Shown piece after piece: positions 5,814 to 30,792 of a DNA stretch of 64,000 nt. The position numbers and the translations under genes are program-made. The notes under the pieces are model-generated. The model was not told the DNA's origin. It saw only the letters and a list, made by a program, of their open reading frames with translations, and did not search any database. The DNA is from Acidimicrobiales bacterium (GTDB taxonomy: Bacteria; Actinomycetota; Acidimicrobiia; Acidimicrobiales; Bog-793). The number at the start of each line of letters is the position of its first letter. The stretch's first letter is position 1. The stretch spans positions 9,710 to 73,709 of the forward strand of contig JBEKEM010000003.1 of the NCBI GenBank assembly GCA_050013835.1, given 5' to 3'.

Positions 5814-6869
5814 TCAGGCGCCCTTGACGATCGAAGCCCCCAGGTGCCTGGCGATGATGGCCATCCGCATGGGGATCATGTTCGCCATCTGCTCGACGTC
5901 TCTCATCCTCGGGTCCGAGTCGACGCTGGGGTCCAGCTCGTCCCGGCGCGGGCGCGGGTGCATGACGATGCTGTCCGGCGACATCTGCTGGATCCGGTCG
6001 TAGTCGACGATCCAGCTCCCGTAGTCGCGGGCCAGCTGCTCGGCGCGGACGATCTCCGCCGGGTCCTCGCCCGTGTATTCATCCGGGTTGCGACCCAGGT
6101 AGAGGACGTCCGTGTGCCGCATCGCCCCGTCGAGGTCGCCGGTTCTCGTCAGGCGGTCCCCGAGCAGCTCGACGAGTGCCGGGGGCACCGGGGCGGCGGG
6201 TGACTCGACGGCCACGATCTCCATGCCCAGCGTCGCGGCGCCGATCATGAGGGAGTGGTGCGCCCGGTACCGCTCCTGGTCGCCGACCACCGTGATCGTG
6301 AGCCCGGCGAACCGCTTGAACTTCTTGTGCACGGTGAACAGGTCGCCGAGGGCCTGGGTCGGGTGCTCGTTGTGACCGTCGCCGAGGTTGATGACGGGCA
6401 CGACCTGCGCGAGCTGCCCGTAGGCCACGGCCTGGGCGATGACGTGGGCGGCGAAGGCCGGGCCGCCGTTCTCGGCGGTCCGGATGCCGAGGATGTCCGC
6501 CTGGGTCGCGAAGGCCACCCAGGAGTCCGCCAGCGACTCCCCCTTGGCCTCGGACGAGCTGCTCATACCGCTGATCAGCTCGGCGGAGCCACCGAGCTTC
6601 CGCATCGCCGAGGTGCAGCTGCCACCGGTCCGGGTCGAGGGTTGCCGCATGATCGCCTTCATGACGGCGCGGGGTAGCAGTTGCAGGCCGCGGCGCGCCG
6701 GATCCCGGATCGCGCGCTCGCCGGCGTAGGCCTCGTCGAGGTACGCGCCGATGTCATCGGCGTCCAGCTGGTGCATGGAAAGCAGGTTCTTGCCCGTGGC
6801 GTCTCCGGCGATCGGTTGCGTCACCGCAGACAGGTCAATCGCTTCCACCGCTTCGGTTGCAGCCATCAT
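5814..6869 (-). CDS. aspartate/ornithine carbamoyltransferase-fold protein, divergent (STRTG variant)
   Basis: Motifs seen: 'PSTRTGGS' where STRTR is expected, 'EHPTQALGDL' (HPxQ), and 'MHPRPRRDEL' (HPLPR-like). ATG at 6869 is preceded by GGGAGAAG. Confidence 0.75.
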   Translation of the reverse strand: MMAATEAVEAIDLSAVTQPIAGDATGKNLLSMHQLDADDIGAYLDEAYAGERAIRDPARRGLQLLPRAVMKAIMRQPSTRTGGSCTSAMRKLGGSAELISGMSSSSEAKGESLADSWVAFATQADILGIRTAENGGPAFAAHVIAQAVAYGQLAQVVPVINLGDGHNEHPTQALGDLFTVHKKFKRFAGLTITVVGDQERYRAHHSLMIGAATLGMEIVAVESPAAPVPPALVELLGDRLTRTGDLDGAMRHTDVLYLGRNPDEYTGEDPAEIVRAEQLARDYGSWIVDYDRIQQMSPDSIVMHPRPRRDELDPSVDSDPRMRDVEQMANMIPMRMAIIARHLGASIVKGA

Positions 6870-7160
6870 CTTCTCCCTGGGCGCGAGGCTCTGGTCAAAC
6901 GGGTCGGCACGGACGCCCGCCCCGCCACCGGTCACGCCGTGAAGGCCGAGGAACGGTCCCGCAGGACGGCTTCGCCATCCCGTCATCCCGGGAACCTGGC
7001 CGAAAGTCCGGGCTCTTCCTTGGCGATGCGAATTGCACGTGACACTCCGACGGGGTCGGTCGCCGTCAGGCTAATTGCCTCCCGCCTGGCGATGGGGAAC
7101 CACTCTCGGTGACGCCCGCCGGGAAAACGCGCGGAGAGGGATCGCCGGGGTCCGCCCGGC

Positions 7161-8876: not shown

Positions 8877-9203
8877 TCCCGACAACGCACCGATCGTCAC
8901 GACCGCGCCGGTCACGGCCCGCCCCGGGTGTCCCGTCGGCCAGCCCGGGGCGGTGGGCGATGACCTCGGCACGCCTTCCCGGACTGGGGCTCGCCGCCAG
9001 CGGGTCGGAAATGGACGGGTTTGACCTGCGGTTACGGATCACGGCGCAAGACCGCGCGTGCGGCGTGGAGTCGCGAATCTGGCAACCGTTATCTCTTCAT
9101 GACCGCGCGCAGATCATCGAAGGCGCGGCCGAGTCACACTGACCCACTACCAACGCTGGAACGACGAGACCGGCCCGCTAGCGTTCGAGCCGAGAGAGAT
9201 CCG

Positions 9204-11594
9204 TTGGCCACGATCACCACCGTCGGGACCCGAGGCAGGGTCGGGGAGGCCGCCCCGCGCGTCGACGGGGTGCCGAAGGTCACAGGCGCGTTCACCTTCG
9301 CGAGCGACCTGCACCGCGAGGGGATGCTCTTCGGGGCGACCCTGCGTTCCCACCTCGCCTACGCCCGCGTCCGGCACGTCGACACCTCGCGCGCTCTGGC
9401 GACACCCGGGGTCGCGGCGGTCATGCTCGGCACCGACGTCCCGGGAACGAACCGCTTCGGTCTGAACTTCTTCGACCAGCCGGTCCTCGCCGAGGACGTC
9501 GTGCGCTACTCGGGAGAGCCGATCGCCGTCCTCGCCGCCTCGACGCCGGAGATCGCCAGGCGGGCGGTGGCGAAGATCGACGTCGACCTCGAGGCATTGC
9601 CCGGCGTCTACGACATGGAGGAGGCGCTCGCCCCCGACGCGCCGCGCCTGCACGAGTTCGGAAACGTCCTTCGCCACGTGCACATCCTCCACGGCGAACC
9701 CGACACGGCCGAGGCGGACGTCTGGATGGACGGCTACTACGAGACGGCGATGCAGGACCAGGCCGCACTCGGCCCGGAGGCGGGACTGGCGGTGCCGGCC
9801 GAGGACGGCGGCATCGACCTTTACGTCACGACGCAGTGGCTGCACGTCGACCGCGAGCAGATCTCGCCGTGCCTGGGACTGCCCGAGGACAAGGTCCGGC
9901 TGCACCTCGCCGGCGTCGGGGGCGCGTTCGGGTCCCGCGAGGACATCCACATGCAGATCCACGCCTGCATGCTGGCGCTGCGGACGGGCAGGCCGGTGAA
10001 GTTCAGCTACGGACGCGAGGAGTCCTTCCACGGGCACGTCCACCGCCACCCCTCGAGGATCTGGATGCGGCACGGTGCCAGCCGCGACGGCCGCCTCGTC
10101 GCCCTCGACGTCCGGCTGATGTTCGACGGCGGTGCCTACGCCTCGTCCTCCCCCGCCGTGCTCGGCAACGCGGCGAGCATGTCCGCCGGTCCCTACGAGG
10201 TGCCGAACGTGCGCGTCGAGGGCACGGTCGTCTACACGAACAACCCGCCCTGCGGGGCGATGCGCGGGTTCGGCGCCCCCCAGGTGTGCTTCGCCTACGA
10301 GGCCCAGATGGACAAGCTCGCGCGCCTGCTGGCGATCGATCCCGTCGAGCTGCGCCTGCGCAACGCCGTCTCCACCGGCTCGGTCCTGCCGACCGGACAG
10401 GTCGTCACGGGGAGCGCCCCCGTGCGGGAGCTGATCCGGCGCTGCGTCGCCATCCCCCTGCCGGCGCCGGAGCCCGACCGGGGCCGCGACCTCACCCGCT
10501 ATCCCGGCGGGGTGGGCAACGTGACGCACGGCGAGGGGATCCGCCGCGGCGTCGGCCTCGCCGTCGGCTACAAGAACGTGGCGTTCAGCGAGGGATTCGA
10601 CGACTCCGCCACAGCCCGCGTGACGCTCTCCCGCACGCCCGACGGGCCCGAGGCGGAGATCTACACCGCCGCGGTCGAGATGGGCCAGGGGCTGTACACG
10701 TTCCTCACCCAGGTCGTGCGGACCGAGCTCGAGGTCGACCGGGTCGTCCTGCACGCCATCGACACCCTGATCGGCGGGGCCGGGTCGACGTCTGCGTCGC
10801 GCCAGTCGATGATGGCCGGCGGCGCGGTGCAGATGGCGTGCGGCGCCGTGCGCGCAACCCTTTTCGAACGGGCACGGGCCCGCTCCGGCTCGGTCCCGGA
10901 AGGCGCCAGACTCGCCCTCGCCGATGGCTGGGTCGTGGCCGGCGGGTCACCGCTCGTCGAGCTCGAGGACCTCCTCGACGAACCCGTCTCGGGCGAGGCC
11001 GTCTACCACCACCGCCCGACCGGGAACTTCGACGAGAACGGTCAGGGGGACGTCCACGTCTGTTTCGCCTTCGCGGCCGAGCGGGCGGTCGTCGAGGTCG
11101 ACGAGGACCTCGGGCTCGTGCGCGTCCTGCAGGTGGCGGCGGCGATCGACGTCGGCCGCGTGCTCAACCCGCTCGGGTTGACCGGCCAGATCGAGGGCGG
11201 AACCGCCCAGGGGCTCGGCCTCGGGCTGATGGAGCAGGTCCAGCTCCACGAGGGCGTGATCCGCAACCCGTCCTTCACCGACTACCTCATCCCGACGATC
11301 CTCGACATGCCGCCGGTCGTCTCCGTGGCGGTCGAGGAGCCCGAGCCCGGCTCCCCCTACGGCCTGAAGGGCGTCGGCGAGTCACCGACGATCGTCGCCA
11401 CGGCGGCCGTGGTCGCCGCCTTGCGCGACGCGACGGGGCGGGAGCTGAACCGCGCCCCGGTCACGCCGGACGAGCTCGTCGGCCTGCGGGGTCCCGCGAC
11501 GACGTCGGGCCCGCCACCGATTCCCGAGGTGCCCGGCCAGAAGTCGGTGCCGTTCTACTTCGAGATGAGCTCCGGCCAGCAGAAGATCATGTAG
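9204..11594 (+). CDS. xanthine dehydrogenase family molybdopterin-binding (large) subunit
   Basis: 'PRVDGVPKVTGAFTFASDL' at the N-terminus, 'GGAFGSRED', 'GAMRGFGAPQ', 'GESPT'. Third-position GC only becomes coding-like from the in-frame TTG at 9204, which follows GAGAGAGA. The ATG at 9099 is an alternative start. Confidence 0.88.
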   Translation: MATITTVGTRGRVGEAAPRVDGVPKVTGAFTFASDLHREGMLFGATLRSHLAYARVRHVDTSRALATPGVAAVMLGTDVPGTNRFGLNFFDQPVLAEDVVRYSGEPIAVLAASTPEIARRAVAKIDVDLEALPGVYDMEEALAPDAPRLHEFGNVLRHVHILHGEPDTAEADVWMDGYYETAMQDQAALGPEAGLAVPAEDGGIDLYVTTQWLHVDREQISPCLGLPEDKVRLHLAGVGGAFGSREDIHMQIHACMLALRTGRPVKFSYGREESFHGHVHRHPSRIWMRHGASRDGRLVALDVRLMFDGGAYASSSPAVLGNAASMSAGPYEVPNVRVEGTVVYTNNPPCGAMRGFGAPQVCFAYEAQMDKLARLLAIDPVELRLRNAVSTGSVLPTGQVVTGSAPVRELIRRCVAIPLPAPEPDRGRDLTRYPGGVGNVTHGEGIRRGVGLAVGYKNVAFSEGFDDSATARVTLSRTPDGPEAEIYTAAVEMGQGLYTFLTQVVRTELEVDRVVLHAIDTLIGGAGSTSASRQSMMAGGAVQMACGAVRATLFERARARSGSVPEGARLALADGWVVAGGSPLVELEDLLDEPVSGEAVYHHRPTGNFDENGQGDVHVCFAFAAERAVVEVDEDLGLVRVLQVAAAIDVGRVLNPLGLTGQIEGGTAQGLGLGLMEQVQLHEGVIRNPSFTDYLIPTILDMPPVVSVAVEEPEPGSPYGLKGVGESPTIVATAAVVAALRDATGRELNRAPVTPDELVGLRGPATTSGPPPIPEVPGQKSVPFYFEMSSGQQKIM

Positions 11595-11672
11595 GCACGA
11601 AGGACCGATGCGGATGCGACTTGGGCGAGGCAGTGCGCCTGCGGCGGCGGGACGGCGCCCGACGGTGGCATC

Positions 11673-12545
11673 GTGACGTTCCTGCGGCCGACGACCTGGG
11701 CCGACGCGCTCGCCGACCGGGCGGAGCATCCCGAGGCCGTCGTCGTCGCGGGAGGGACCGACGTGATGGTCGAGGTCAACTTCGGCCGCCTCCACCCGCC
11801 CGCCTTCCTCGACCTCTCGCGGGTCGAGGAGCTGCGCGCCCTCGGCCGCAAGGACGGGCGGGTCCAGGTGGGCTCCGGGGTCACCTACCGGTCGATCATG
11901 CGCGATCTCGCCGGCGCGCTCCCCGGACTCGCCGCCGCCGCCCGCACCGTCGGATCTCCGCCGATCCGGAACAGGGGCACGATCGGCGGCAACCTGGGCT
12001 CGGCGTCGCCCGCCGGCGACTGCCACCCGCCGCTCCTCGCCTGCGGCGCCGAGGTCGAGATCGCCTCGGTCACTTCGAGCAGGACCGTACCCATCGCCGA
12101 CTTCTTCCTAGGCCCCAAGCGCAGCGTCCTCGGCTCCGACGAGCTGATCGCCGCGGTGTGGGTGCCGGCGGCCACGGGGCCCCAGACCTTCTCCAAGGTG
12201 GGGTCGCGCAACGCCATGGTCATCGCCATCTGTTCCTTCGCCCTGGCCCTCCACCCCGACGAGGGCCGGGTCGGCACGGGGATCGGCTCCGCCGGCCCCG
12301 TGCCGCTGCGGGCGTTAGCGGCCGAGGAGTTCCTCGCCGGACACCTCGCCGAGACGGGAGGGTGGGAGTCGCGGCGCGCGCTCGACGAGACCGCCGTCGA
12401 CGAGTTCGCCCGACTCGTCGCCGGGGCCGCCCGGCCGATCGACGACGTGCGGGGCTCGGCCGACTACCGCCGGCACGCCCTCGGTGTGCTGGCGCGCCGT
12501 TCGCTCTCGTGGTGCTGGGACGAGTTCCGGGGGACGAGACGATGA
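11673..12545 (+). CDS. xanthine dehydrogenase family FAD-binding (medium) subunit
   Basis: 'VVVAGGTDVMVEVNFG', 'GTIGGNLGSASPAGD'. CoxM/XdhB-like, 290 aa. Confidence 0.85.
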   Translation: MTFLRPTTWADALADRAEHPEAVVVAGGTDVMVEVNFGRLHPPAFLDLSRVEELRALGRKDGRVQVGSGVTYRSIMRDLAGALPGLAAAARTVGSPPIRNRGTIGGNLGSASPAGDCHPPLLACGAEVEIASVTSSRTVPIADFFLGPKRSVLGSDELIAAVWVPAATGPQTFSKVGSRNAMVIAICSFALALHPDEGRVGTGIGSAGPVPLRALAAEEFLAGHLAETGGWESRRALDETAVDEFARLVAGAARPIDDVRGSADYRRHALGVLARRSLSWCWDEFRGTRR

Positions 12546-13000
12546 GGGTCTCGTTGACCGTCAACGGGGTCGCGCGCGTGGTCGACGGCGTCGGCGAGCA
12601 GGAGAGTCTGCTCCACCTGCTGCGGGAGCACCTCGATCTGTTCGGCACGAAGAACGCCTGCGAGCAGGGAGAATGCGGCTCGTGTTCGGTGTATCTCGAC
12701 GATGTGCTGGTCTGTTCCTGCCTGGTCGCCGCCGGTCAGGCGGAAGGGGGCACCGTCACGACGGTCGAGGGATTGTTCGCCGATGGCATCCTCGATCCCA
12801 TCCAGCAGGCCTTCGTCGAGGCCGGTGCCGTCCAGTGCGGATTCTGCACCCCGGGCTTCGTCCTGGCTACCCATGACCTCCTGCGACACATGCCGGATCC
12901 CGACGACGCCCAGATCCGCGAGGCGCTATCGGGAAACCTCTGCCGGTGCACCGGCTATCAGAAGATCATCGACGCTGTCCACCGCGCGGCAGGCCGCTAG
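12542..13000 (+). CDS. (2Fe-2S)-binding (small) subunit
   Basis: 'CEQGECGSCSV...CSC', 'QCGFCTPG', 'CRCTGY'. Its start overlaps the FAD subunit stop (ATGA). It is the last 152 aa of shadow ORF 9836..13000. Confidence 0.9.
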   Translation: MRVSLTVNGVARVVDGVGEQESLLHLLREHLDLFGTKNACEQGECGSCSVYLDDVLVCSCLVAAGQAEGGTVTTVEGLFADGILDPIQQAFVEAGAVQCGFCTPGFVLATHDLLRHMPDPDDAQIREALSGNLCRCTGYQKIIDAVHRAAGR

Positions 13001-13913: not shown

Positions 13914-14864
13914 CTAGTCGACGGTGAAATGTGTCCCCGTCAGGCCGGCGACCGCCCTCGCGAGGTTCGGCGGATCCGTGACGATGGCGTGCTTCCCGCC
14001 GTTCTCGAGGTACTCGATGACCGCCTCGATCTTCGGCGCCATGCTTCCCGCTGCGAAGTGCACGCCCTCGGCGACATACCGCCGCGCCTCGGCGAGGCTG
14101 AGATGGTCCACCGAGCGCTGGGCAGGCGTGCCGAAGTTGAGCGCCACCTTCTCGACCGACGTGGAGATGAGGAACAGCTCGGCCCCGAGGTTGCGCGCCA
14201 GCAGCGAACAACCCAGGTCCTTGTCGATCACGGCCTCGACCCCCTGGAGGTCGCCATCGGCGTCGGCGACGACGGGGATCCCCCCGCCGCCGACCCCTAT
14301 CACGATGACCCCGGCCGCGATAAGCGACCTGATCGCGTCGAGCTCCACGATGCGCCGCGGGCGCGGTGAGGCGACGACGCGCCGCCAACCCCGATTGGCG
14401 TCCTCGACGACGTCCCAGCCGTCCTGCGCGCGGCGCCGACGCGCCTCGCTTTCGTCCATAAACGATCCGATCGGCTTGGTCGGGTTCGTGAAGGCGGGAT
14501 CGTCCACCGCCACCTCCACCTGGGTCACGATCGCCGCCACGGGCCTGTCCATGCCCCGGCGCCGCAGCACGTTCTGCAGGTTCTGCGCGAGGGCGTAGCC
14601 GATCGCGCCCTGGGAGTCGGCGCCGCAGGCGTCAAGCGGCACCTCGTGGAGCTCGTGGGCGGCGAGCTCCGAACGGCGCAGAATGAAGCCCACCTGTGGG
14701 CCGTTGCCGTGGCCGATTGCGACGTCCCAGCCGTCGGCGATCATGGCCGCCACGTGCTGGGAGGTTTCGTGGGCCGCGATGTACTGGTCGCGCACCGCCT
14801 GGTGCATCCGGTCCTTGATCAGCGAGTTGCCGCCGATCGCGACGACGGCGAGTCGATCGCCCAC
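13914..14864 (-). CDS. arcC: carbamate kinase
   Basis: 'VVAIGGNSL', 'VAIGHGNGPQVG', 'GGGGIPVV', 'AAGSMAPKIEA'. Confidence 0.9.
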   Translation of the reverse strand: MGDRLAVVAIGGNSLIKDRMHQAVRDQYIAAHETSQHVAAMIADGWDVAIGHGNGPQVGFILRRSELAAHELHEVPLDACGADSQGAIGYALAQNLQNVLRRRGMDRPVAAIVTQVEVAVDDPAFTNPTKPIGSFMDESEARRRRAQDGWDVVEDANRGWRRVVASPRPRRIVELDAIRSLIAAGVIVIGVGGGGIPVVADADGDLQGVEAVIDKDLGCSLLARNLGAELFLISTSVEKVALNFGTPAQRSVDHLSLAEARRYVAEGVHFAAGSMAPKIEAVIEYLENGGKHAIVTDPPNLARAVAGLTGTHFTVD

Positions 14865-14875
14865 GGCCTGGACCT

Positions 14876-15853
14876 CTAGCCCATCGTCAGCGCCATGACG
14901 GCCTTCTGGCCATGCAGGCGGTTCTCGGCCTGGTCGTAGACGACGGAGTGCGGCCCGTCGATCACCTCATCAGTGACCTCGACGTTGCGGTCCGCCGGCA
15001 GCGGGTGCATGTAGATCGCCTCCTCGCTCGCCAGGGCGACCCGGCGCGCGTCGGTGATCCAGTCGGCGTACTTGGCGATGAGCTTGGCCCCCTCGGCCTC
15101 GTCCGTCGTCGTGCGCAGCGCCCCCCAGCTCTTGGCGTAGATGACGTCGGTGCCCCGGATCCCCTCGTCGAAGTCGTGAGAGACCTCGAACGAGGCGTGC
15201 GCCCGGCGGGCCTCCTCCTCGGCCTGCCCGACGATCTCGGGCAGGAGGGAGAACTCGGGCGGATGGACGAGGCGGACGTTCATGCCGAAGCGCGGGAGCA
15301 GCAGCGCCAGGCTCTGGGGCACGCTGATCGGCTTCTGGTAGCTCGCGGCGCAGGCCCAGCTGATCGTCGCCGTGCGGCCACGCGGGTCCCCGAAGCGTTC
15401 GATGATCGTCATCAGGTCCGCCAGGGCCTGGTGCGGATGGAAGACGTCGCACTGCATGTTGAGCACGGGGACGCGGCTCGCTTCGGCGACGTCGCGCAGA
15501 TACCCGTTGCCCACCAGCCAGTCGACGTGGCGGATGGCGATGCCATCGTTGTAGCGCCCGAGGATCTCGCCGATCTCCTTGGCGGTGTCACCGTGGGCGA
15601 TCTGGGTGGTCCTGCTCTCGATGAACTGGGCGTGGCCCCCCAGCTGCGCCATGCCGGCCTCGAACGAGGCCCGCGTCCGCGTGCTCGAGAAAAAGAACAA
15701 CATCGCGAGCACCTTGTCGCGGAGCAGCGGGTGCGCCCGACCGAGGGCGCGGTCTCGTTTGAGGTCGAAGGCCACCTCGAGCACGGTGTCGATCTCGTCC
15801 TTGGTCCACTCGGAGAAGTCAATGACGTCCCGGCCCCGGAGGTTCGTCTGCAT
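14876..15853 (-). CDS. YgeW-like (unknown-substrate) carbamoyltransferase
   Basis: 'SSTRTRASFE', 'TQIAHGDT', 'NMQCDVFHPHQALADL', 'SYQKPISVPQS', 'YMHPLPAD'. As I recall the E. coli YgeW sequence, these segments resemble it more than OTC or ATC. Confidence 0.8.
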   Translation of the reverse strand: MQTNLRGRDVIDFSEWTKDEIDTVLEVAFDLKRDRALGRAHPLLRDKVLAMLFFFSSTRTRASFEAGMAQLGGHAQFIESRTTQIAHGDTAKEIGEILGRYNDGIAIRHVDWLVGNGYLRDVAEASRVPVLNMQCDVFHPHQALADLMTIIERFGDPRGRTATISWACAASYQKPISVPQSLALLLPRFGMNVRLVHPPEFSLLPEIVGQAEEEARRAHASFEVSHDFDEGIRGTDVIYAKSWGALRTTTDEAEGAKLIAKYADWITDARRVALASEEAIYMHPLPADRNVEVTDEVIDGPHSVVYDQAENRLHGQKAVMALTMG

Positions 15854-15881
15854 GGTCCTCCTTCCTTTCCGGTTCCCCGGC

Positions 15882-16832
15882 CTAGCTCACGGCCCCGAGG
15901 ACGAGCGAGAGCAGCGCCATCCGCATCACGACGCCGTTGAAGGCCTCGAACCAGTAGCGGGCGTGGCGCGTGCCGTCGACGTCGGTCGGCAGCTCGTCCA
16001 TCCTCGGCAGCGAGTGCAGGATGATGGCGTCGGTCTTGGCCTTCTTGGCCATGAGCTCCTTCGTCACGCGGTAGGCCGGCGGGGTGAGCCCGTGCTCCTC
16101 GACCTCTTCCCGGGACTTGGTGTAGTCGGCCTGCACGACCGGCTCCATGTAGACGACATCGGCGTCGGCCAGGCACTCCTCGACGCTGGCGACCTCGCGG
16201 TAACGCGCGCCGCGCGCGGCGAGCTCGGCCGAGAACTCCGGCAAGAGCGACATCTCCGGCGGGTGGACGAGCGACGCCGTCATGTCGAACTGCGTCATGG
16301 CGTAGAGGATCGAGTGCATCGTGCGCATCCGCATGTCCCCCACGCAGAGCACGTTCAGCCCGTCGAGCGTGCCCTTGTCCTTCCAGATCGTGTAGAGGTC
16401 GGTGAGCACTTGGGTGGGGTGCTCCCCCCAGCCGTCGCCGCAGTTGATCACCGGCACCGAGGACCACCGCGCGGCCTCGGCCGGCGCGCCCTGCTCGAAG
16501 TGGCGCATCGCGATGACGTCGCCGTAGTACTCGAGCATGTGGACGGTGTCCTTGATGCTCTCCTGGTAGAAGTCCCCGGCCCGGGTCATCTTGGCGTCGG
16601 AGAACCCGAGCACGTGCCCGCCGAGCCGGTGCATCGCCGCCTCGGTGGCGAGCCGGGTCCTGGTGCTCGGCTGGTAGAAGGCGGTGAGCAGCGTCTTGTG
16701 GGCGAGCAGGTCCCCGTTCTCGCGCCGCTCCGCGTACGGCCTTAGCTCGTCGGCGACCCGGAAGACCTCGAAGTACTCGTCGCGCTCGAAGTCCTTGAGC
16801 GAGAGGATGTCCCGTCCGGCAAAGCTCCTCAT
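15882..16832 (-). CDS. PyrB-like carbamoyltransferase, non-canonical second-substrate site
   Basis: 'QPSTRTRLATE', 'GEHPTQVLTDL', 'ILHSLPRMDELPTDVD...YWFEAFNG'. The 'MTRVQKER' aspartate-binding segment of E. coli PyrB is replaced by 'MEPVVQAD'. Confidence 0.8.
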   Translation of the reverse strand: MRSFAGRDILSLKDFERDEYFEVFRVADELRPYAERRENGDLLAHKTLLTAFYQPSTRTRLATEAAMHRLGGHVLGFSDAKMTRAGDFYQESIKDTVHMLEYYGDVIAMRHFEQGAPAEAARWSSVPVINCGDGWGEHPTQVLTDLYTIWKDKGTLDGLNVLCVGDMRMRTMHSILYAMTQFDMTASLVHPPEMSLLPEFSAELAARGARYREVASVEECLADADVVYMEPVVQADYTKSREEVEEHGLTPPAYRVTKELMAKKAKTDAIILHSLPRMDELPTDVDGTRHARYWFEAFNGVVMRMALLSLVLGAVS

Positions 16833-16863: not shown

Positions 16864-17853
16864 TCACGAGCCGAAAGTGTCGATCATCAACCGCACGTCG
16901 CTGCCGAGCGGGTACAGGATCGGGCAGGTTGCACCCGCGGCGATGTACTCATCGACCTTCGCGCGGCACTCCTCGGGGGCCCCGGAGGCGGTGATCATCT
17001 GGACCGCCTCGTCGGGCACGAGCTTCATCGCCCGGTGGATCTCCTCGGGCCCGGCCGGCCAGGTGAGGACCTTGCCGATCTCCTCGATGAGGGCCGGGTC
17101 GACCCCGCTCGCCTTCATGATGTGGGGCTGCTGGCCGAGGTACTGGGTGAGGAGCTCGCGTGACCGGTCGAGGGCGAGCTCGCGGTTCTGGTCGAGCGAG
17201 CACACGACGAGCTGGGGCCGGTCGATCTCGTCGAGCGATCGGTGGGCGCGGGCCGCACCGACGGCGAGGTGCTCCATCGCCGACCGGTTGTAGGCGGGGC
17301 TCACCATGTAGTTGAGCACGACCCCGTCGGCGATCTCGCCGGCGAGCTCCATCATCTGCATCCCCGTCGCGCCGACGTAGATCGGCACCTGCCTCGGCGA
17401 GCGGTCGCCGTGGACGACGTCGATCTCCACGTCGTCGAGGTGCACGAAGCTGCCGTGGTAGGTGACGCGCTCCATGGCGAGGAGCCGGCGGGTCGCCTCG
17501 ACGACCTCGCGCATCGCGGTGAGCGGCCGGGTGCGGTTGACGCCCACCTTGGTGGCGAGCGGCTCCCACCAGGCGCCGAGCCCGAGGATCACCCGGCCCG
17601 GGGCGAGCTCGTCGAGCGTCGAGAACGTCGCCGCCAGCAGGCCGACGTTGCGCGTCCAGATCGGGATAACCCCCGAGGCGACCTTGATCCTGCTCGTCAC
17701 GGCGGCGTAGGCGGCCATCGGCACGGTCGCCTCGCGCACGAGGCGGCTCTCGGCCTGCCAGACCGCCTCGAAACCGCGTTCCTCGGCGTAGCGGGAGTAC
17801 TCCATGCCCTCCCGGATCGGGTGCATGTCCTGCAGGTACAAGGCGGCCCTCAT
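16864..17853 (-). CDS. LLM-class (luciferase-like, probably F420/flavin-dependent) oxidoreductase
   Basis: '[12 protein letters not shown]...[31 protein letters not shown]'. ATG at 17853 is preceded by GGAGGGAGGAG and overlaps the ssnA stop (ATGA). Confidence 0.8.
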
Positions 17854-19211
17854 CGCTCCTCCCTCCGTGGATCGTAGGGGTGCGCCGGCGTCGCCTCGAG
17901 GCGGCCCCACAACCGCGCCGTGACCCCGACCTCGTCGGAGGCGACCGCGGCCTCGTCGACACGGGTCGAACGACCGTTTTCGACCACGAGCTCCCCGGCC
18001 ACGTAGACGTCACGCACCCTGCCGGGGGCGAGCCCGAAGACCCAGTGCCCGGCGAGGTTGTCCGAGCTGATCGGCGTCGGCGGGTCGTAGGCGAGGACGC
18101 AGAGGTCCGCCGGCGCGCCCGGCAGCAGCGTGCCGAGCAGCGGCTCGTCGAAGCATCGACCGGCGAGGCGCGCGCCCTCGGCCAGGCGCGCGAGCGGCCA
18201 CTCCGGCGGCGTCGTACGGTCGGCTTCCTTGGCGCGGAAGAACCCGGCCTGGGACTCGGCGAGCATGTCGCCCCCGATGCCGTCGGTGCCAAGCGCGACC
18301 CTCCCGCCCCGCAGGTTGAACGGCGAGTGCCCGACGCTGTTGTTCATGTTCGACCGCGGGTTGCACACGACCGTCGCGCCGATCGATCCGATGAGCCGGG
18401 CCTCGTCGTCGTCGACTTTGACGCAGTGGGCGAGCAGGGCGTCCTGGTTCAGCACCCCGCGGTCGCGCAGGCGCATCGCCACCCGGTTGCCGCCCCGGCG
18501 GAGGCTGTCCCGCTCGTCGACGTCGTCCTCGGCCACGTGGATGTGCACGCCGACGCCGGCCTCGGCCGCCACCCCGGCACAGCGCTCGAGGGTCCCGTCG
18601 GACAGCGTGAACGAGGCGTGCGCGCCCACCATCCCCCGCGCGAGCTCCCGGGGGCGACGGGCAAACCTCCGGTTCTCCTCGAGGCCGGCCGTCGCGCGCT
18701 CCGGGCCGTCCCGGTCGGTGACCTCGTAGCAGAGCACCGAGCGCACCCCCAGGACGGCGAGCGCCTCGGCGATCACGTCGAGCGACCCGTCGATGAAGTT
18801 CGGCGAGGCGTGATGGTCGACGATCGTCGTGGTGCCGGCGAGGAGGGCGTCGAGACCGCCCCGCACCGCCGAGGCGCGTACCGACTCCTCGTCGAGGGCG
18901 CGGTCGAGCCGCCACCAGATCCGCTGGAGGATCTCGGTGAAATCGGCCGGTGGCGCCAGCGAGTACGGCATGCCTCTCGACAGCGCCGAGTAGAGGTGGT
19001 GGTGGGCGCAGACGTTCCCCGGCACGATCAAACTTCCGCCGCAGTCCCGGGTCGGGATGCCTTGGGGAACCGCCCCGAGGCCGCGCACGCGCCCGTCGGC
19101 GATGACGAGATCGGCGCGCACGACTTCGGGTGGTGCGAGGGACACGGCGACCCATGCGCCGCACAGGGCCACGCCCGAGGCGGTGCTGGCGCGGGTCTGC
19201 CCGGCGGTCAC
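17850..19211 (-). CDS. ssnA: SsnA-type putative aminohydrolase (amidohydrolase superfamily)
   Basis: '[18 protein letters not shown]', '[17 protein letters not shown]', '[11 protein letters not shown]', '[11 protein letters not shown]', 'LGTDGIG'. GTG at 19211 overlaps the upstream stop (GTGA). The rest of ORF 17850..20183 is shadow frame. Confidence 0.85.
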
Positions 19212-20560
19212 GAGCGCTCGACCCCGGTGAAGAGCACCCCCACCCGCTCGGCGCGCCGGACGGTGCCCGACTCGACGAGCTGTGCCAGTCCGGCGAGCCC
19301 GGCCGAGCCCGTGGCGCTGACCGGGAATCCCGCCTCCCGACCGAGTTCGTGGGCCCACACGAGCCGCTCCTCCCCGACGACGACCGGCTCCCCGTGCGTC
19401 GCGAGCATCCCGCGCACGACGGCGAGCCAGTCGTAGGTCTCGTCGTCGAGGATCCCCTCGGCGACGCTTCTGGGCTCGGCTTCCCAGGGCCACATGTAGG
19501 CCGACCGCCGCCCGGCGGCGGCACGGACCGCCCGGTCGGTGGCTCCCGCGTCCGTCTCGCCCGCCAGGTCCTTGTGCACCTGGCGGAACGCCCGCTCCAA
19601 CGGGTGGGCCCCGGCCGTCTGCACCGTGTGGACCCGCGGGATCCTCCCGAGTTTCCCCAGGGCACGTGCCTCGGTGAACGCCTGCACGCAGCTGCTGGCG
19701 AGCGCGCCGCCGCCCACCTGGACAACGACGTGGTCGAGCCCCCGCCCGTCCGATGCGAGCTGCGAGACGAGCTCGTAGCCGAGCGTCTCGCCCCCCTCGA
19801 TCGCCAGGCCGTTGAGGTTCCCCTGGCAGGTGAAGCCGACGGCGCCCTCGTCGAGCTCGGCGAGCAAGCGGAGATACGTCGGATCCCCCGGCTCGCCGGG
19901 GTTCCGCGCGCAGGCGACGATGTCGGCGTCGAGCTCGCCGAGGCGGTTGACGACGTGGGCGTCGGCGTCGACCGGCACGAAGACCCGCAGCCGCCGGCCG
20001 GCCGCGGCCGCGACGACCGCGGCGGCGAGCGCGGCGTTCCCGCAGCTGGCGACGGCGAGCGTCGGGTGCCGGTCGGACGGGACGAGGCCGAGCATCTCCG
20101 CCACCTCGAGGTGCAGCGCCACGCCCATCAGGTGGCGCGCCTTGTGCGACCCGGCCACGTTCCCGGTCTCGTCCTTCACCCACACGCCCCCCGGCTCGAC
20201 GAAGCCGAGGGCACGCGACACGACGTCGCTCCGCCCGAAGGGAGTCACCGTGAAACCGTGGCCGTCGACCCGGGTGACCGCTGCGTCGAGGCGTCGCACG
20301 AGAGCGACGAAGTCCCCGTCGCTCACCCCTCCCGCGCGGGCACGGTGGTAGCTATGGAGGAGCCCCCGGTAGCCGACGAACGGGCACGGGTCGTCCGCCT
20401 CCGCCTCCGGGAATCGCACCCGGTCGGTCGCCAGCACCCGGGTGAGGACGTGGTCGACGTCGCCCTCGGCGTGGTTCGGGCAACGGAAGGGGTATGGGTC
20501 CCGCTCCCCCGGCGAGGCGCCGCAGCCGGCGCAGGAAAGCGTGCTCGCGGGCGCGCTCAA
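19208..20560 (-). CDS. PLP-dependent enzyme, fold type II (threonine-synthase-like) with Cys-rich N-terminus
   Basis: Lys motif '[11 protein letters not shown]', '[15 protein letters not shown]', '[10 protein letters not shown]'. The N-terminus reads 'LSCAGCG...FRCPNH'. TTG at 20560 overlaps the upstream stop (TTGA). Confidence 0.7.
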
Positions 20561-22053
20561 GAGACGGCGACCCCGGTGCGACCGTTGAAGGCGCGGATGA
20601 GCTCGTCCCAGCGCGTCAGCTCGGTCCGCAGTTCCCGCCACCAGGACTGGGCCCGCCGGGCGTTGAACTCGTCGATTCCGACCCCCTGCTGCTCCACCCA
20701 CGTGAAGTAACCGAGGTTGAAGATGCGCTGCCGGTCGACGGCCGTCGTCTCCAGGAGGTGGTCGGTCCCGGCGCCGAGCATGAAGCGGCCGAACGCCTCG
20801 GCGGCGGAGCGCTCATCGAAGCCCGAGGCGAAATCCCGCGCGACGATCCGCTGCCGCTCGCTTCCGTACATCTCGGCGCCGTCGGTGGCGACCGTCATCA
20901 CGACGTCGTCGGGACCGAGTCCCAGGTACTTGGCGGTCTTCACGGCGGCGAGGACGTTGCAGATGCTCGAGAGGCCGAACTCGTCGAGAGTCGCGAGCAC
21001 CTCGGGCGGCACCTGGCGCCGCCGGGCGAGGTACGCCCTGCCTTCCGCCGAGCCGAAGACCACCGCGAGGTGGTCGGTCGCGCGGTCGGAGACCGCCGTC
21101 ACGATGTCGGTGTTGTACACGTTGTGGATGAACGGGATGTGCTTGTCGCCGATCCCCTGGATGTTGTGCTCGCCGAACCCGTTGTAGAGCATCGTCGGAC
21201 ACTCGAGCGCCTCGACGGCGACGATGCGCGCCCCCCGCGTCTCTTTCAGGTAGTCCCCCGCTCCCAGCGTCCCCGCCGAGCCCGAGGCGGAGACGAAGGC
21301 GGCGAGCCGCAGCGAGGGTTCGGTGGCCAGCATCTCGTCGAAGACGGCGCCGAGCGCGGACCCGGTGCACCGGTAGTGGACCAGGTGGTTCCCGAACTCG
21401 GCGAACTGGTTGAAGATGACGTTCGCCCGGTCACGCGACAGCTCGGCGCATCGGTCGTAGATCTCCTTCACGTTGCTCTCGGTGCCGGGTGTCGCGATCA
21501 CGTCCGCCGGATCGGCGACCCAGTCCTCGAGCCAGGCGAAACGCTCCCGGCTCATCCCCTCCGGCAGCACGGCGACGCCGCGACAGCTCATGAGCCGTGA
21601 GATCGCCACCCCGCCGCGGCAGTAGTTTCCCGTGGAGGGCCACACCGCCCGGTTCGCCGTCGGGTCGAACTGCCCGGTGACGACCCGTGGCACAAGGCAG
21701 CCATACGCGGCGAGCACCTTGTGGGCGCGGATCATCGGGAAGCGGTCGCCGAACGCCACGACGATGCGGGCGTCGACGCCGGTGAGCTCGCTCGGCAGCA
21801 CCACGTGACCCGGCACGGTCACCTGCGACGTGCGACCGGCGTCGTTGTACCAGTGGACGCGGAACAGGTTGAGGGGACTGGCCTCGTCCGGCGCCACCGC
21901 CCCGAGCGCCCGGCGGATGGGAGCGGGGATGAGGATCGGCTCGGCCAGCTCGGCGAAGGTCGGCAACAGAATCTGGCGTTCCCGGAAGCGCTCGACGGTG
22001 CGGCCGTACACCGCCTCGTCGACGATGTCATCTTCGCGTCCCAAGGTCCGCAC
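20557..22053 (-). CDS. PLP-dependent enzyme, fold type II (cysteine-synthase/TrpB-like), about 498 aa
   Basis: '[14 protein letters not shown]' (candidate PLP lysine), '[13 protein letters not shown]', '[12 protein letters not shown]'. GTG at 22053 lies 6 nt after GGAGGA. Confidence 0.7.
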
Positions 22054-22288
22054 CTGCACTCCTCCGTCTCTATTGGATCGCGACGGCCCCATCGTCGCTG
22101 CCAGCCGGACTTGAGGTCCCCGAGCCTCCTTCGACTGCTCCGCTCATCTGTCTTGTCCGACGACTTCGGCCGGGCGTCGCGCCCGACCGAGGACCCGCCC
22201 GGCGACGGCGACCCGTCCCGGGCACCACCCGCTCGCGCACCCTAGTGACCACGTGGCCCCGGCGGCGCGAATCTCGTTCCAGACAGAC

Positions 22289-22327: not shown

Positions 22328-23821
22328 CTAGAAGGACTGCTTGGCGACCTCCCTCGGGACCGAACGGAACGACAGCACGAAGTAGACGACCGCGCTGACG
22401 ATCAGCCCGAAGGCCCAGCTGAAGTCGGCACCGTGGGTCCAGTTCGACAACGGCGAGGAGTACGAGGGCGTGTAGAAGGCCGCGTCGATCCACATCATCG
22501 CCGCGAACATTCCAGCTGCCAGCGATACCAACGCCTTCCAGTTGAAGCCGCCGTCACGCCAGTACAAACCACCGTGTTTGGCGGCCAACGACTTGAACTC
22601 GTAGCGGCCGCGCCGGAGCCAGTAGTCGACGATGTAGACGCCGAACCACGCACCGAGCCAGACGACGATGTAGTCGAGGAACCCGGCAAGGTCCGTGTAG
22701 AAGTTCCCCTTGAAGATCACGAGGGCCGTCACGCCACCGGAGATGATGGTGTCGATGACGACGCAGACCCACCGCTTGGCCGGAAGGCCGAGCGCCTGGA
22801 GGGTGACCCCCGAGGAGTACATGTCGAGCGTGTTGATCGCGAACAGCTGCGGCAGCGCCAGGATCAAGAACGGCCAGAAGAACCAGCTGGCGAACGACGT
22901 CGGAAGAGCGGCCGCGGCACCGGGGCCGTAGATGTTGCTCTGGAGTGACGTGCTGACGAGGTAGGCGCAGGCACCGAGGAGCTCGAGCAGGATCGACGGG
23001 ATGGCCCCGCCAAGCGTCGCGGCCCAGAACGTCTTCGCCGTGGGGGTGTCAGCCGGCAGGTAGCGGGAGTAGTCCGCCGCGTTCTCGGTCCAGCCGAGAC
23101 CCCCTGCCGAGACGACGAGCACGAGCCCGGTGGTCCACAGCCACCACGAGTCCGTGCCGTGCGCGTGCAGGTCGGACAGGTGGACGTGGGGAAGGACGAG
23201 GCACGCCATGATGGCGAAGACCACGACGAACACGTAGGACAGGTAGTGCAGGACCTTCGTGATCGTCGCGTGCCCGAGGAACGGCACGACGAACTGGATG
23301 AGGACGGCGATGATGATCGCGATCGTCTTGCCGGTGTCGTTGAGGTGGATCCCCTCGTGGCTGAACATCGCCACGACGACCAAGACCGCGATCACAAGGC
23401 CTTCGACCTCGAAGCCGACCTGGGTGATCCAGTTGAACAACGACGGCGCGCGGTTGCCGTTCCGGCCGAAGGCCGCGCGGCTCACCATGAACGTCGTCGT
23501 CCCCGACCTCGGCCCGGCAAGGCTCGCCGCGCCGAGGAAGACGTAGACGATGTTCCCGAGGAGGATCGCCAAGACGGCCTGCCAGAACGTCAGCCCGAAG
23601 GCGACGATCAGGGCGCCGTAGACGAGGAACTCGACGTTCCAGATCCCGCCGGCCCACATCCAGAACAGGCCCCCAGGGCGCAGCCGCCGGTCGGCATCCG
23701 CGACGTGCTCGATACCCCGCTGCTCGAGTTTGAAGGCGCTATACCCCTCAGCGGCCTCGTCGCCGGACATCGACGACCCGCCTCCCGGCGGGCCGGAGCC
23801 CATGTCCACACCGTTGGCCAT
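22328..23821 (-). CDS. NCS1 family (cytosine/purine/uracil/allantoin/hydantoin) permease
   Basis: A 497-aa polytopic membrane protein with 'FKLEQRGIEHV...RLRPGGLFWMWAGG' at the N-terminus. ATG at 23821 is preceded by GGAGGGAGG. Confidence 0.85.
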   Translation of the reverse strand: MANGVDMGSGPPGGGSSMSGDEAAEGYSAFKLEQRGIEHVADADRRLRPGGLFWMWAGGIWNVEFLVYGALIVAFGLTFWQAVLAILLGNIVYVFLGAASLAGPRSGTTTFMVSRAAFGRNGNRAPSLFNWITQVGFEVEGLVIAVLVVVAMFSHEGIHLNDTGKTIAIIIAVLIQFVVPFLGHATITKVLHYLSYVFVVVFAIMACLVLPHVHLSDLHAHGTDSWWLWTTGLVLVVSAGGLGWTENAADYSRYLPADTPTAKTFWAATLGGAIPSILLELLGACAYLVSTSLQSNIYGPGAAAALPTSFASWFFWPFLILALPQLFAINTLDMYSSGVTLQALGLPAKRWVCVVIDTIISGGVTALVIFKGNFYTDLAGFLDYIVVWLGAWFGVYIVDYWLRRGRYEFKSLAAKHGGLYWRDGGFNWKALVSLAAGMFAAMMWIDAAFYTPSYSSPLSNWTHGADFSWAFGLIVSAVVYFVLSFRSVPREVAKQSF

Positions 23822-24157
23822 CGTCGGACCTCCCTCCGTGCGCCTCGGAAAGGTCGGTCGGCCCTCGTCGTGCGCACTATCTAGTCGTACGACAGAACGT
23901 GTTGCAGGCAACCCCGTGAAACCTCCGGCACTGTATCCCTTGGACGCCGTTCCGTCGCTGTTGAATTTGTCGTCTTCTTGTTCCCCTGCGCGGCGTCCCG
24001 CCGTCACGGGCCGCCCTGCGACCCTCCCCAGGCGGCAGGGCGACCGGCCGGGGCGTGGGCCGGCGATGCCCGCCGCACCGGCGGGCGGGGCTGGGTGGGC
24101 GGTCTCGTCTTGACCGGAGACGAGCTGGCCGACCGGTCCCAACGGCCTGGTCGGGTG

Positions 24158-25480
24158 ATGTCGGGGACGGCGATACTACGGGGCGTGGAACAGCGGACGG
24201 TCCTGCGCGGCGTCGCCTCGCCCGGCGACATCGCCGTCGAGCAAGGACACGTCGCCACGATCGGCACGGTCGACGCCCGGCCCGGCGACCGCGTGCTGCG
24301 CTGTGACGGTGCCCTCGTCACGGCCGGGCTCGTCAACTGCCACCACCACCTCTACCAGTGGCTGACCCGGGGCCGGGCGACTGCCTGCGACCTGTTCACA
24401 TGGCTCACGACCCTCTACCCCGTCTGGGGGCGGATCTCGGCCGAGGACACGGCGGTGGCGGCTCTCGTCGGGCTGGGCGAGCTCGCCCTGGGCGGGGCGA
24501 CGACGGTGTCGGACCACCACTACGTCGTGCCCCGTGGCGACGACACCGTCTTCGACGCCATCGCCGCCGCGGCGGGCACCGTCGGAGTCCGGCTGCAGCT
24601 CTGCCGGGGCTCGATGGACCTCGGAGAGAGCGCCGGGGGGCTCCCGCCCGACTCCGTCGTGGAGTCGATCGACGCCATCCTCGCCTCGACCGAGTCCGTC
24701 GCCGCCCGCCTGCACGACGGCGACCGCGTGATGGTCTCCGTCGCGCCGTGCAGCCCGTTCTCGGTGACGACCGACCTTTTGCGCGAGTCCGCCGCCCTCG
24801 CCCGCCGACTGGGACTGCGCCTGCACACCCACCTCGCCGAGACCGAGGACGAGGCGCGCCACTGCCAGGCGCGCTTCGGACTGCGGCCGCTCGAGTTGAT
24901 GGAGGAGCTCGGGTGGCTCGGCGACGACGTCTGGTTCGCCCACGCCGTCCACCTCGAGCCGGCTGAGGTCGCCGCCCTCGGGGACGCCCGCGCCGGCGTG
25001 GCCCACTGCCCGAGCTCGAACGCGCGGCTCGCCGCCGGCCTCTGCCCGGTACGGGGCCTCCTCGACGCCGGCGCGGCCGTCGGCCTCGGCGTCGACGGCC
25101 CGGCCTCCAACGAGCTGGGCGTGCTGCTGCCGGAACTGCGCCAGGCGCTCAACCTGGCGCGGCTGCGAGAGGGACGGGCCGACGCCCTGTCGCCGGCCGA
25201 GGCGCTGGCGCTCGCCACCTCGGGGGGCGCGGCCTGCCTCGGGCGTGCCGATCTCGGCCGGCTCGAGGTGGGGGCGGTGGCCGACCTCGCCGTCTGGCCG
25301 CTCGCCGACCTGGCCGACATCCCCGACCCGGTCGACGGGCTCGTGCTCGGCCCCGACCGGCGCGTGCGCCACCTTCTCGTCGGGGGCCGCGAGGTGGTGG
25401 TCGACGGGAACCTCGTGGGCGTCGACCTCACGGCCGCGCACGGCGAACTGGCGCGGCGCTCCCGCGAGCTGTGGCGGTGA
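24158..25480 (+). CDS. 8-oxoguanine/guanine-deaminase-like amidohydrolase (COG0402 type)
   Basis: 'GLVNCHHHLYQ', 'HTHLAETEDE', 'FAHAVHL', 'AHCPSSNARL', 'GVDGPASNE'. Confidence 0.8.
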   Translation: MSGTAILRGVEQRTVLRGVASPGDIAVEQGHVATIGTVDARPGDRVLRCDGALVTAGLVNCHHHLYQWLTRGRATACDLFTWLTTLYPVWGRISAEDTAVAALVGLGELALGGATTVSDHHYVVPRGDDTVFDAIAAAAGTVGVRLQLCRGSMDLGESAGGLPPDSVVESIDAILASTESVAARLHDGDRVMVSVAPCSPFSVTTDLLRESAALARRLGLRLHTHLAETEDEARHCQARFGLRPLELMEELGWLGDDVWFAHAVHLEPAEVAALGDARAGVAHCPSSNARLAAGLCPVRGLLDAGAAVGLGVDGPASNELGVLLPELRQALNLARLREGRADALSPAEALALATSGGAACLGRADLGRLEVGAVADLAVWPLADLADIPDPVDGLVLGPDRRVRHLLVGGREVVVDGNLVGVDLTAAHGELARRSRELWR

Positions 25481-27672: not shown

Positions 27673-27755
27673 GACGGCTCCCCCGCCACGAGGCATTCAC
27701 CGCCGGAACGGCGAAGCGGGAATCGGGCGCGGGGCGGTCTGGAGAGCTCACGACG

Positions 27756-30692: not shown

Positions 30693-30792
30693 CCAACCCG
30701 CCCCGGCCGCCCCGCCGGAGGGGGACGGGCGGTCTGCGTCCGGCCGGAAAGGCCCCCGATAGGCTGCGACGGTCGAGGGGGCAGGGACTGAC

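Follow-up and report, generated by a model that had tools for sequence, protein, structure and literature searches.

A tandem pair of carbamoyltransferases with a single carbamate kinase in a putative reductive urate island of an Acidimicrobiales bacterium

The reductive urate pathway, an oxygen-free route of uric acid degradation, was elucidated only in 2025, in gut bacteria. XdhD reduces urate to 2,8-dioxopurine (PMC12507026; bioRxiv 10.1101/2025.04.24.650524), and YgfK or UacX then dearomatises the ring, a role for which an F420 luciferase-family enzyme has been proposed in the clusters of Chloroflexota (PMC12507026). Ring opening by SsnA and HyuA gives 2,3-diureidopropionate, which carries two ureido groups (PMC12507026; bioRxiv 10.1101/2025.04.24.650524). 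YgeW takes one of these with phosphate and YqeA then makes ATP, the other group being removed by YgeY through hydrolysis (PMC12507026; 10.1101/2025.04.24.650524; PMC12990295); YgeX converts diaminopropionate to pyruvate (PMC12507026; bioRxiv 10.1101/2025.04.24.650524). Both the ureido group attacked by YgeW and the order of cleavage are disputed (PMC12990295). Here, we analysed a 64,000-nucleotide stretch from the genome of a soil Acidimicrobiales bacterium (the window), in which two carbamoyltransferase genes, P0001 and P0002, lie in tandem upstream of a single carbamate kinase gene.

The two primary papers and a commentary describe variants of the pathway in the reductase (NADH, ferredoxin or F420) and in how the 2-ureido group is cleaved (YgeW versus the hydrolase UacY). 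None of the three mentions a second transcarbamylase, and full-text literature searches gave no variant with two transferases. The window resembles the lower module of E. coli and Clostridium (YgeW, YgeY, YqeA and YgeX) in having a YgeW-clade transferase and a YqeA-type kinase, with ATP predicted to be gained from a ureido group, and in having homologues of XdhD, SsnA and HyuA upstream. It differs in that a second transferase, derived from aspartate carbamoyltransferase (ATCase), is found in place of YgeY, two other pyridoxal phosphate (PLP) enzymes in place of YgeX, and an F420 luciferase-like reductase where YgfK would be; with 325 aa, the YgeW homologue is compact and without the insertions of YgeW, and the organisms that carry such clusters live freely (Acidimicrobiia, Chloroflexota and others) rather than as gut anaerobes. 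The arginine and agmatine deiminase pathways likewise couple ureido phosphorolysis to substrate-level ATP formation by carbamate kinase. However, each kinase there is served by one transferase, an ornithine or putrescine carbamoyltransferase of catabolic function, and each substrate has one ureido group, whereas the window cluster has two transferases of different lineages per kinase.

The locus is probably a variant of the known urate pathway containing a transcarbamylase subfamily new in function, which is annotated as ATCase. In the reading that we favour, P0001 and P0002 would phosphorolyse both ureido groups of 2,3-diureidopropionate in turn and feed one kinase, giving two ATP per urate; we regard this as probable, although far from secure. 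An earlier note, made from the DNA letters, had proposed that two catabolic transcarbamylases feed one kinase from two distinct N-carbamoyl intermediates, an idea that is supported by the two ureido groups of 2,3-diureidopropionate.

Two transferase lineages beside one kinase

The window, with a G+C content of about 70%, is part of contig C3 in an assembly of 2.06 Mb with a completeness of 94.6%. Both transferase reading frames were found where the earlier note had placed them, on the minus strand, in tandem and directly upstream of a single kinase gene:

13914 to 14864, minus strand: carbamate kinase of the YqeA/ArcC type, final gene of the operon (NF009007, 381 bits against a cut-off of 266)
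14876 to 15853, minus strand: P0001 ('TCA'), compact YgeW-clade carbamoyltransferase of 325 aa (Pfam OTCace_N and OTCace)
15882 to 16832, minus strand: P0002 ('TCB'), carbamoyltransferase of 316 aa with the ATCase fold (Pfam OTCace_N and OTCace)

On the minus strand, P0002 is followed after 28 nt by P0001 and after a further 11 nt by the kinase gene. Ribosome-binding sites (GGAAGGG, GGAGGA) are visible at both transferase genes, and the kinase site is weak (AGG). No terminator-like site was found in the spacers between the three genes, and a scan for promoters and terminators gave nothing above chance level. The kinase is 47% identical to E. coli YqeA and, with a single tblastn match, is the sole copy in the assembly.

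P0002 is 38% identical to E. coli PyrB and contains all motifs that had been quoted for it (PSTRTR, HPTQ, MEPVVQAD and HSLPRMDELPTDVD...YWFEAFNG). It passes the ATCase model TIGR00670 marginally (248 bits; cut-off 237) and fails NF002032 (220 against 263 bits), while canonical PyrB proteins of related genomes score 280–330 bits. The AlphaFold2 (AF2) model had a predicted local distance difference test (pLDDT) score of 85.5, with low confidence in the 80s and 240s loops only, and TM-scores of 0.83–0.86 to ATCases; the fold search confirmed the ATCase fold and nothing more.

To compare the active sites residue by residue, 43 P0002 orthologues were aligned with E. coli PyrB. S52, T53, R54, T55, R56, R105, H134, Q137, R167, L267, P268 and R269 are invariant in all 43, and the carbamoyl-phosphate ligands among them (S52, T53, R54, T55, R105, H134, Q137 and L267/P268) are intact throughout. 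Six replacements, K84Y, T228E, R229P, Q231V/I, R234D and P266S, are fixed to the same extent (43/43). The loss of an arginine from the aspartate-binding segment, which the earlier note had pointed out, was borne out as R229, and the alignment adds K84, Q231 and R234 to the residues lost. We take R167 of PyrB to be a ligand of the alpha-carboxylate and K84, R229 and Q231 to be ligands of the beta-carboxylate; of these four aspartate ligands, R167 alone is kept in P0002. The 80s loop is two residues longer than in PyrB (TRAGDFYQES). Of about 50 canonical PyrB loci retrieved in the same scan as P0002 loci, most have KGE[ST] and TR[VI]QxERF, as far as these were legible to the motif scan.

Compared with the PyrB catalytic chain, P0002 shares the fold, the carbamoyl-phosphate ligands and R167. 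In addition to the replacements at K84, R229, Q231 and R234 and the longer 80s loop, it differs in having no pyr context and no regulatory chain, and in being paired with a carbamate kinase. We read P0002 as a transcarbamylase with catalytic competence, for which the second substrate would be other than aspartate. The retention of R167 together with the loss of K84, R229 and Q231 would fit a substrate such as 2,3-diaminopropionate or albizziin, alpha-amino acids whose side chain is not acidic. In the tree, P0002 nests within a wider ATCase-like clade with the same loop type, which is sister to canonical ATCases (support 97/92).

This broad, metagenomic clade is characterised by an R-[AS]-G-D 80s loop without KGE[ST] and TRxQxER, and P0002 is one conserved branch of it. 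Other members are P0257, P0258, P0262, P0265, P0266, P0268, P0276 and a gene of Chloroflexia (L059:9950-10936). The neighbours of the last differ from those of P0002, being PydA-like, histidine ammonia-lyase and amidinotransferase-like genes, and are uninformative on the substrate.

P0001 belongs to a different lineage. The motifs quoted earlier are all there (SSTRTR, HPHQ, TQIAHGDT, SYQKPISVPQS and YMHPLPAD), and its likening to YgeW held up, with 32–34% identity to E. coli YgeW. Segments common to the two proteins are TQIAHGDT/SQIAHGET, an extra GN-Y-R loop, NMQCD/NLQCD, SYQKPISVPQS/SYGKPLSVPQG, YAKSW/YPKSW and HPLPAD/HCLPAD. When the genome was queried with E. coli YgeW, P0001 was the best match (172 bits), and P0002 reached merely 67 bits.

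P0001 remains under every NCBIfam cut-off, including those for ornithine carbamoyltransferase (OTCase; 252 against 306 bits) and acetylornithine carbamoyltransferase (AOTCase; NF003384, 239 against 288 bits). It also misses the cut-offs of the YgeW models (TIGR03316, 161 against 500 bits; NF005538, 169 against 453 bits), largely because the four YgeW insertions are missing. P0001 does not have the marks of an OTCase, as YAKSWGAL replaces DVWASMG (the DxxxSMG loop), HPLP replaces HCLP, and the TIGR00658 score of 238 bits is under the cut-off of 281. With the AOTCase of Xanthomonas, P0001 shares a VDW loop, YAKSWGAL and RNV-x-TD motifs as well as the sub-threshold NF003384 score; it differs in its grouping with YgeW and in having no arginine-biosynthesis context.

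In a maximum-likelihood tree of few taxa, in which YgeW sits on a long branch, P0001 orthologues and E. coli YgeW form a clade (98/93) with AOTCase and OTCases outside. The AF2 model of P0001 (pLDDT 76.6) had TM-scores of 0.79–0.87 to knotted AOTCases and unknotted OTCases alike; the fold search gave no distinction between the folds of YgeW, AOTCase and OTCase and is silent on a trefoil knot. SsnA, HyuA, an XdhD-type enzyme and the YqeA-type kinase all accompany P0001 in the window. We read P0001 as a compact YgeW-clade enzyme that would be the functional counterpart of YgeW.

Co-occurrence of the pair and its relation to YgeY

Orthologues of P0001 (65–77% identity) and P0002 (60–75%) occur in the identical 29 of 300 other Acidimicrobiia genomes and are adjacent in all but one of them. 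A scan of species representatives found P0002 orthologues (68–81% identity) in Acidimicrobiales, Nocardioides, Streptosporangiaceae and many Anaerolineales and Chloroflexia, and also in Limnocylindria, Eisenbacteria, Verrucomicrobiia and Phycisphaerae. The module of P0002, P0001 and kinase recurs in at least six phyla and in two gene orders: P0002–P0001–kinase, or P0002–kinase with a divergent P0001 located behind a GntR gene. The source names given for the 120 best-matching protein clusters, each more than 80% identical to P0002, were without exception 'aspartate carbamoyltransferase'.

We scored the neighbours in 37 P0002 loci of Actinomycetota, Chloroflexota and other phyla whose flanks extend for at least 3 kb in both directions. 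P0001-type genes were counted in 34 of them, kinase genes in 32 and genes for the CysK-like PLP enzyme PALP2 in 24; a YgeY-like gene was present in three, and YgeX in none (0/37). A YgeY-like M20 gene (38–47% identity to E. coli YgeY) abuts P0002 on five contigs of Chloroflexota, Verrucomicrobiia and Phycisphaerae (L040, L042, L046, L049 and L055).

Across 301 Actinomycetota genomes, YgeW-clade transferases were found in 26. YgeY was found in 17, always with a YgeW-type transferase (nine true YgeW, eight compact YgeW-like), and P0002 in seven, never together with YgeY; these counts describe a pattern and are not a statistical test, related genomes not being independent. In the genome studied here, no M20 peptidase (the YgeY family) was found on contig C3, and the best match to YgeY (25% identity, 57 bits) lies on the unlinked contig C7. 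Because YgeY is absent here and because P0002 and YgeY are mutually exclusive in the 301 genomes, we read P0002 as a replacement for YgeY.

Individual genomes illustrate this exchange. Within one family (f86), the YgeY and the P0002 solutions both occur, in different genomes. In G343 (L112), the luciferase-like enzyme, YgeY, a selenium-dependent xanthine dehydrogenase (XDH), SsnA and a YgeW-like gene lie together in a cluster that shares the F420-type gene content of the window, and YgeY stands where the window cluster has P0002. In G604, one long gene string runs from PALP2, the second PLP enzyme PALP1, P0002 and the kinase onward to a YgeW-like gene. G353 and G520 hold two tandem YgeW-like transferases with a kinase and neither YgeY nor P0002, which, judged by gene content, is an independent two-transferase solution. 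A pair of ureido-cleaving enzymes in each cluster is the predicted rule that recurs, the second of them being drawn from three interchangeable solutions. G353 and G520 are Actinomycetota genomes of 1.4–1.6 Mb, whose clusters (L111, G353:C10:42000-62000, and its counterpart in G520) also contain a HyuA-like gene and PLP enzymes; one YgeW-like copy per genome has a single in-frame TAG.

The close association of the two transferases could also mean that they form one heteromeric carbamoyltransferase acting in a single step, either as mixed trimers or as a complex of trimers, an alternative raised in the earlier note. Their perfect co-occurrence, the usual adjacency of the genes and the unusual conservation of both proteins across phyla (66–82% identity) would agree with this, as would the location of transcarbamylase active sites at subunit interfaces. 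However, P0001 and P0002 lie on the two deepest branches of the transcarbamylase family, and we know of no mixed trimer of ATCase and OTCase types. P0001 is divergent behind the GntR gene in several families, the two genes are ten genes apart in G604 and 12 kb apart in G300, and one locus (L046) has P0002 with no P0001 nearby. Moreover, E. coli YgeW is active by itself (PMC12507026; 10.1101/2025.04.24.650524). We consider a heteromer very unlikely.

Alternatively, P0002 may be catabolic and feed the kinase from an N-carbamoyl substrate that does not derive from diureidopropionate, be it a ring-retaining intermediate like ureidomethyl-hydantoin, N-carbamoyl-beta-alanine from pyrimidines, or oxalurate. 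The substrate of P0002 is itself only inferred, YgeY, P0001 and P0002 stand together in some clusters, HyuA is missing from most P0002 neighbourhoods, and distant loop-variant relatives occur in other catabolic contexts (L059). Against this, P0002 is accompanied by a YgeW-type enzyme in 29 of 29 cases, and it excludes YgeY among the 24 Actinomycetota genomes that hold either. With beta-alanine as the acceptor, only the distal carboxylate would be kept, whereas P0002 has kept R167 and lost R229. Neither uricase nor 2-oxo-4-hydroxy-4-carboxy-5-ureidoimidazoline (OHCU) decarboxylase turned up in searches of the genome, a result that agrees with a reductive urate pathway and makes an oxalurate/oxamate transcarbamylase route unlikely. 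Overall, a different catabolic substrate seems doubtful to us but deserves to be kept in mind.

An anabolic role, in which P0002 would carbamoylate another metabolite with the carbamoyl phosphate released by P0001 and thus bypass the kinase, would follow the transcarbamylase equilibrium, which favours carbamoylation, and would suit the intact carbamoyl-phosphate site. Yet P0002 directly abuts the kinase gene in many loci, with a gap of 18–24 nt, no conserved biosynthetic genes surround it, and its distribution complements that of the hydrolase YgeY. We give this possibility very little weight.

The putative urate island and the other transcarbamylase genes

Read from its gene content, the surroundings of the pair are a reductive urate (2,8-dioxopurine) island in which some roles appear to be filled by non-orthologous candidates. 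The two transferases and the kinase close a seven-gene operon on the minus strand, in the order PALP2, PALP1, SsnA, F420 luciferase-like oxidoreductase, P0002, P0001 and kinase. The features around the pair are:

16864 to 17910, minus strand: F420-dependent luciferase-like oxidoreductase (Pfam Bac_luciferase, 227 bits; top NCBIfam matches are F420 LLM families)
17850 to 19190, minus strand: SsnA-type aminohydrolase, approximate start (NF005540, 398 bits; 38% identity to E. coli SsnA over the full length)
19208 to 20560, minus strand: PALP1, threonine-synthase-like PLP enzyme whose N-terminus carries a Cys-rich ribbon, approximate start (Pfam PALP; weak threonine-synthase matches)
20557 to 22092, minus strand: PALP2, CysK-like PLP enzyme of about 480 aa, uncertain start (Pfam and NCBIfam; weak matches to cysteine synthases in the PDB)
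22328 to 24142, minus strand: NCS1 nucleobase:cation symporter (Pfam Transp_cyt_pur, 158 bits)
23978 to 25480, plus strand: 8-oxoguanine-deaminase-like amidohydrolase, uncertain start (NF006055, 529 bits against a cut-off of 532)
25491 to 26897, plus strand: HyuA-like D-hydantoinase/dihydropyrimidinase (TIGR02033, 473 bits against a cut-off of 393; 43% identity to E. coli HyuA)
27117 to 30692, plus strand: XdhD-like molybdenum enzyme, putative reductase of urate to 2,8-dioxopurine (best match TIGR03313, 691 bits)
30763 to 33402, plus strand: molybdenum hydroxylase resembling selenium-dependent XDH, with fused 2Fe-2S domains (TIGR03311, 801 bits against a cut-off of 830)
9021 to 13000, plus strand: PucD-type xanthine dehydrogenase (TIGR03196, 843 bits; Pfam; matches to E. 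coli XdhB and XdhC), comprising Mo (9021 to 11594), FAD (11673 to 12545) and 2Fe-2S (12542 to 13000) subunits

The genome was queried with the proteins of the E. coli K-12 ygeW–xdhD region. For XdhD, SsnA, HyuA, YqeA and YgeW, the best match in the genome lies inside the window, with identities of 37, 38, 43, 47 and 32%, respectively, and NCBIfam places the island genes in the same families as their E. coli matches. The XdhD-like enzyme aligns over 1013 positions, and a YgfM-like FAD region (26950 to 27669) is located just upstream of its gene or fused to it. XdhC, adenine deaminase and molybdenum-cofactor and molybdate-transport genes are also found around the operon.

Homologues of XdhD, SsnA and HyuA are thus present. 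For the reductase, for the second ureido-cleaving enzyme and for the lyase, the island has non-orthologous candidates, namely the F420 luciferase-like enzyme, P0002 and PALP1/PALP2, respectively. YgfK has no match on contig C3, and the product of 16864 to 17910 is a putative reductase forming dihydro-2,8-dioxopurine in place of YgfK/UacX. E. coli YgeX has no match in the genome, where a family search gave weak, unlinked matches at most; PALP2 is a candidate substitute for this missing diaminopropionate ammonia-lyase. PALP1 is kept in several P0002 clusters.

Two observations concern these candidates in other clusters. The PALP1 and PALP2 pair accompanies P0002 clusters across phyla, the reactions of both enzymes being only predicted. 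The F420 luciferase-like reductase proposed for urate clusters of Chloroflexota occurs in clusters of Actinomycetota too (L024, L025, L032, L033, L057, L112 and L113), and other clusters of Acidimicrobiia (L011 and L018) have a PydA/UacX-like flavoprotein with 4Fe-4S motifs instead.

Five transcarbamylase genes were identified in the genome: P0001, P0002, an OTCase-like gene on contig C9, a transferase adjoining argD (contig C5) and, in the window but outside the operon, a third gene of the ATCase-like kind:

5814 to 6986, minus strand: P0006, third ATCase-like gene (keeps K84, R105, H134, Q137, R167 and R229)

The earlier note had remarked that neither gene of the pair stands in a pyr or arg context and had called for a search for the genuine pyrB and argF. 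The first point held: the transferase in arg context is the one beside argD, and the pyr operon (pyrR, pyrC, (carA), carB, pyrD and pyrF, with a pyrR–pyrC gap of about 67 nt) lies on contig C10. Canonical pyrB is lacking in all nine genomes of the genus (9/9). An orthologue of P0006 is present in the same nine and in no other relative. The nearest relatives of P0006 outside the genus are from Candidatus Saccharibacteria (about 70% identity), one of them in the order pyrD–transcarbamylase–dihydroorotase. In the sister genus represented by G011, the order is pyrR, pyrB, pyrC and carB, and G010 and G011 both hold canonical pyrB as well as the P0002/P0001/kinase module. P0006 is likely the housekeeping ATCase of the genus, acquired by gene transfer; it looks as if pyrB was displaced through horizontal transfer between Acidimicrobiales and Saccharibacteria.

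The P0006-type gene is a divergent ATCase-like gene with STRTG, HPRPR and two insertions. The OTCase-like gene on C9 (about 93700 to 94720, minus strand; L002:952-1971) passes OTCase models (333 bits) and has DCWWWTG at the ornithine-binding DxxxSMG loop. The argD-adjoining transferase is atypical as well (SARTR, SMA).

These findings bear on whether P0002 could be the biosynthetic ATCase, as public annotation has it. The earlier note had held that P0002 would have to be this enzyme if the genome lacked any other pyrB. This condition applies only by half. Canonical pyrB is indeed missing, although pyrR, pyrC, carB, pyrD and pyrF are there in the nine genomes, the source names agree, and TIGR00670 is passed. 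However, the aspartate ligands are kept in the genus-specific P0006, which has the pyr-linked homologue in Saccharibacteria, and K84, R229 and Q231 are replaced in every P0002 orthologue. P0002 fails NF002032, is never found in a pyr context and is always accompanied by a kinase and purine-catabolic genes; in the sister genera it exists alongside canonical pyrB, which lies between pyrR and pyrC in G011. On its active-site residues, its gene context and this co-existence, P0002 was rejected as the housekeeping PyrB, and a biosynthetic assignment appears highly improbable.

A proposed route with two phosphorolytic steps

In the route that we propose, an XdhD-like enzyme would reduce urate, the F420 luciferase-like reductase would dearomatise the ring, and SsnA with the HyuA-like hydantoinase would open it to 2,3-diureidopropionate. 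P0001, of the YgeW type, would phosphorolyse one ureido group. The ATCase-derived P0002 would phosphorolyse the other, replacing the hydrolase YgeY. The single carbamate kinase would turn both carbamoyl phosphates into ATP, two per urate rather than one, and one of the two PLP enzymes would convert 2,3-diaminopropionate to pyruvate. As for regiochemistry, our guess from homology is that P0001 acts on the 3-ureido (side-chain) group, since side-chain amines are the acceptors of ornithine and acetylornithine transcarbamylases. P0002 would then act on the 2-ureido (N-alpha) group, given that R167 is kept and K84, R229 and Q231 are lost.

Several points weigh against this route. ATCases use L-aspartate. 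By contrast, a D configuration has been proposed for the intermediates of the pathway (PMC12990295). Phosphorolysis of carbamoyl groups runs thermodynamically uphill, as noted for YgeW (PMC12507026), and for two such steps the kinase and the lyase would have to pull strongly. A YgeY-like gene lies beside P0002 in three of the 37 loci (L040, L049 and L046) and on two short contigs. Two of the YgeY-bearing P0002 loci also hold P0001 and the kinase, which means that the enzymes do not always number exactly two, and L046 has P0002 and YgeY with neither P0001 nor kinase within −6/+10 kb. Homologues of HyuA and SsnA are missing from many P0002 neighbourhoods of ±10 kb, and the upstream chemistry may therefore differ between lineages. 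Canonical pyrB has been lost in the genus, which leaves room for a biosynthetic or moonlighting role of P0002 there. Lastly, the support comes from genomic comparison, namely gene content, synteny, co-occurrence and residue conservation, and the biochemistry and expression, including substrates, step order and ATP yield, are predicted from it.

In a broader reading, P0002 would found a new ATCase-derived specificity, a phosphorylase for N-alpha-carbamoylated 2,3-diaminopropionate or for diureidopropionate, which together with the YgeW-type enzyme would give two ATP per urate. The module would have spread by gene transfer among Acidimicrobiia of soil and sediment, other Actinomycetota, Chloroflexota and further phyla. 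We see the case for this broader reading as evenly balanced.

If the proposed route is true, a second phosphorolytic enzyme in place of a hydrolase would double the energy yield of the pathway, and chemistry of the purine-fermentation type would be widespread in free-living Acidimicrobiia and Chloroflexota. Two separate regiospecific enzymes could also help to settle the disputed order of ureido cleavage. For the transcarbamylase family, it would add a new substrate specificity and correct a systematic annotation error, in which these enzymes are named aspartate carbamoyltransferase.

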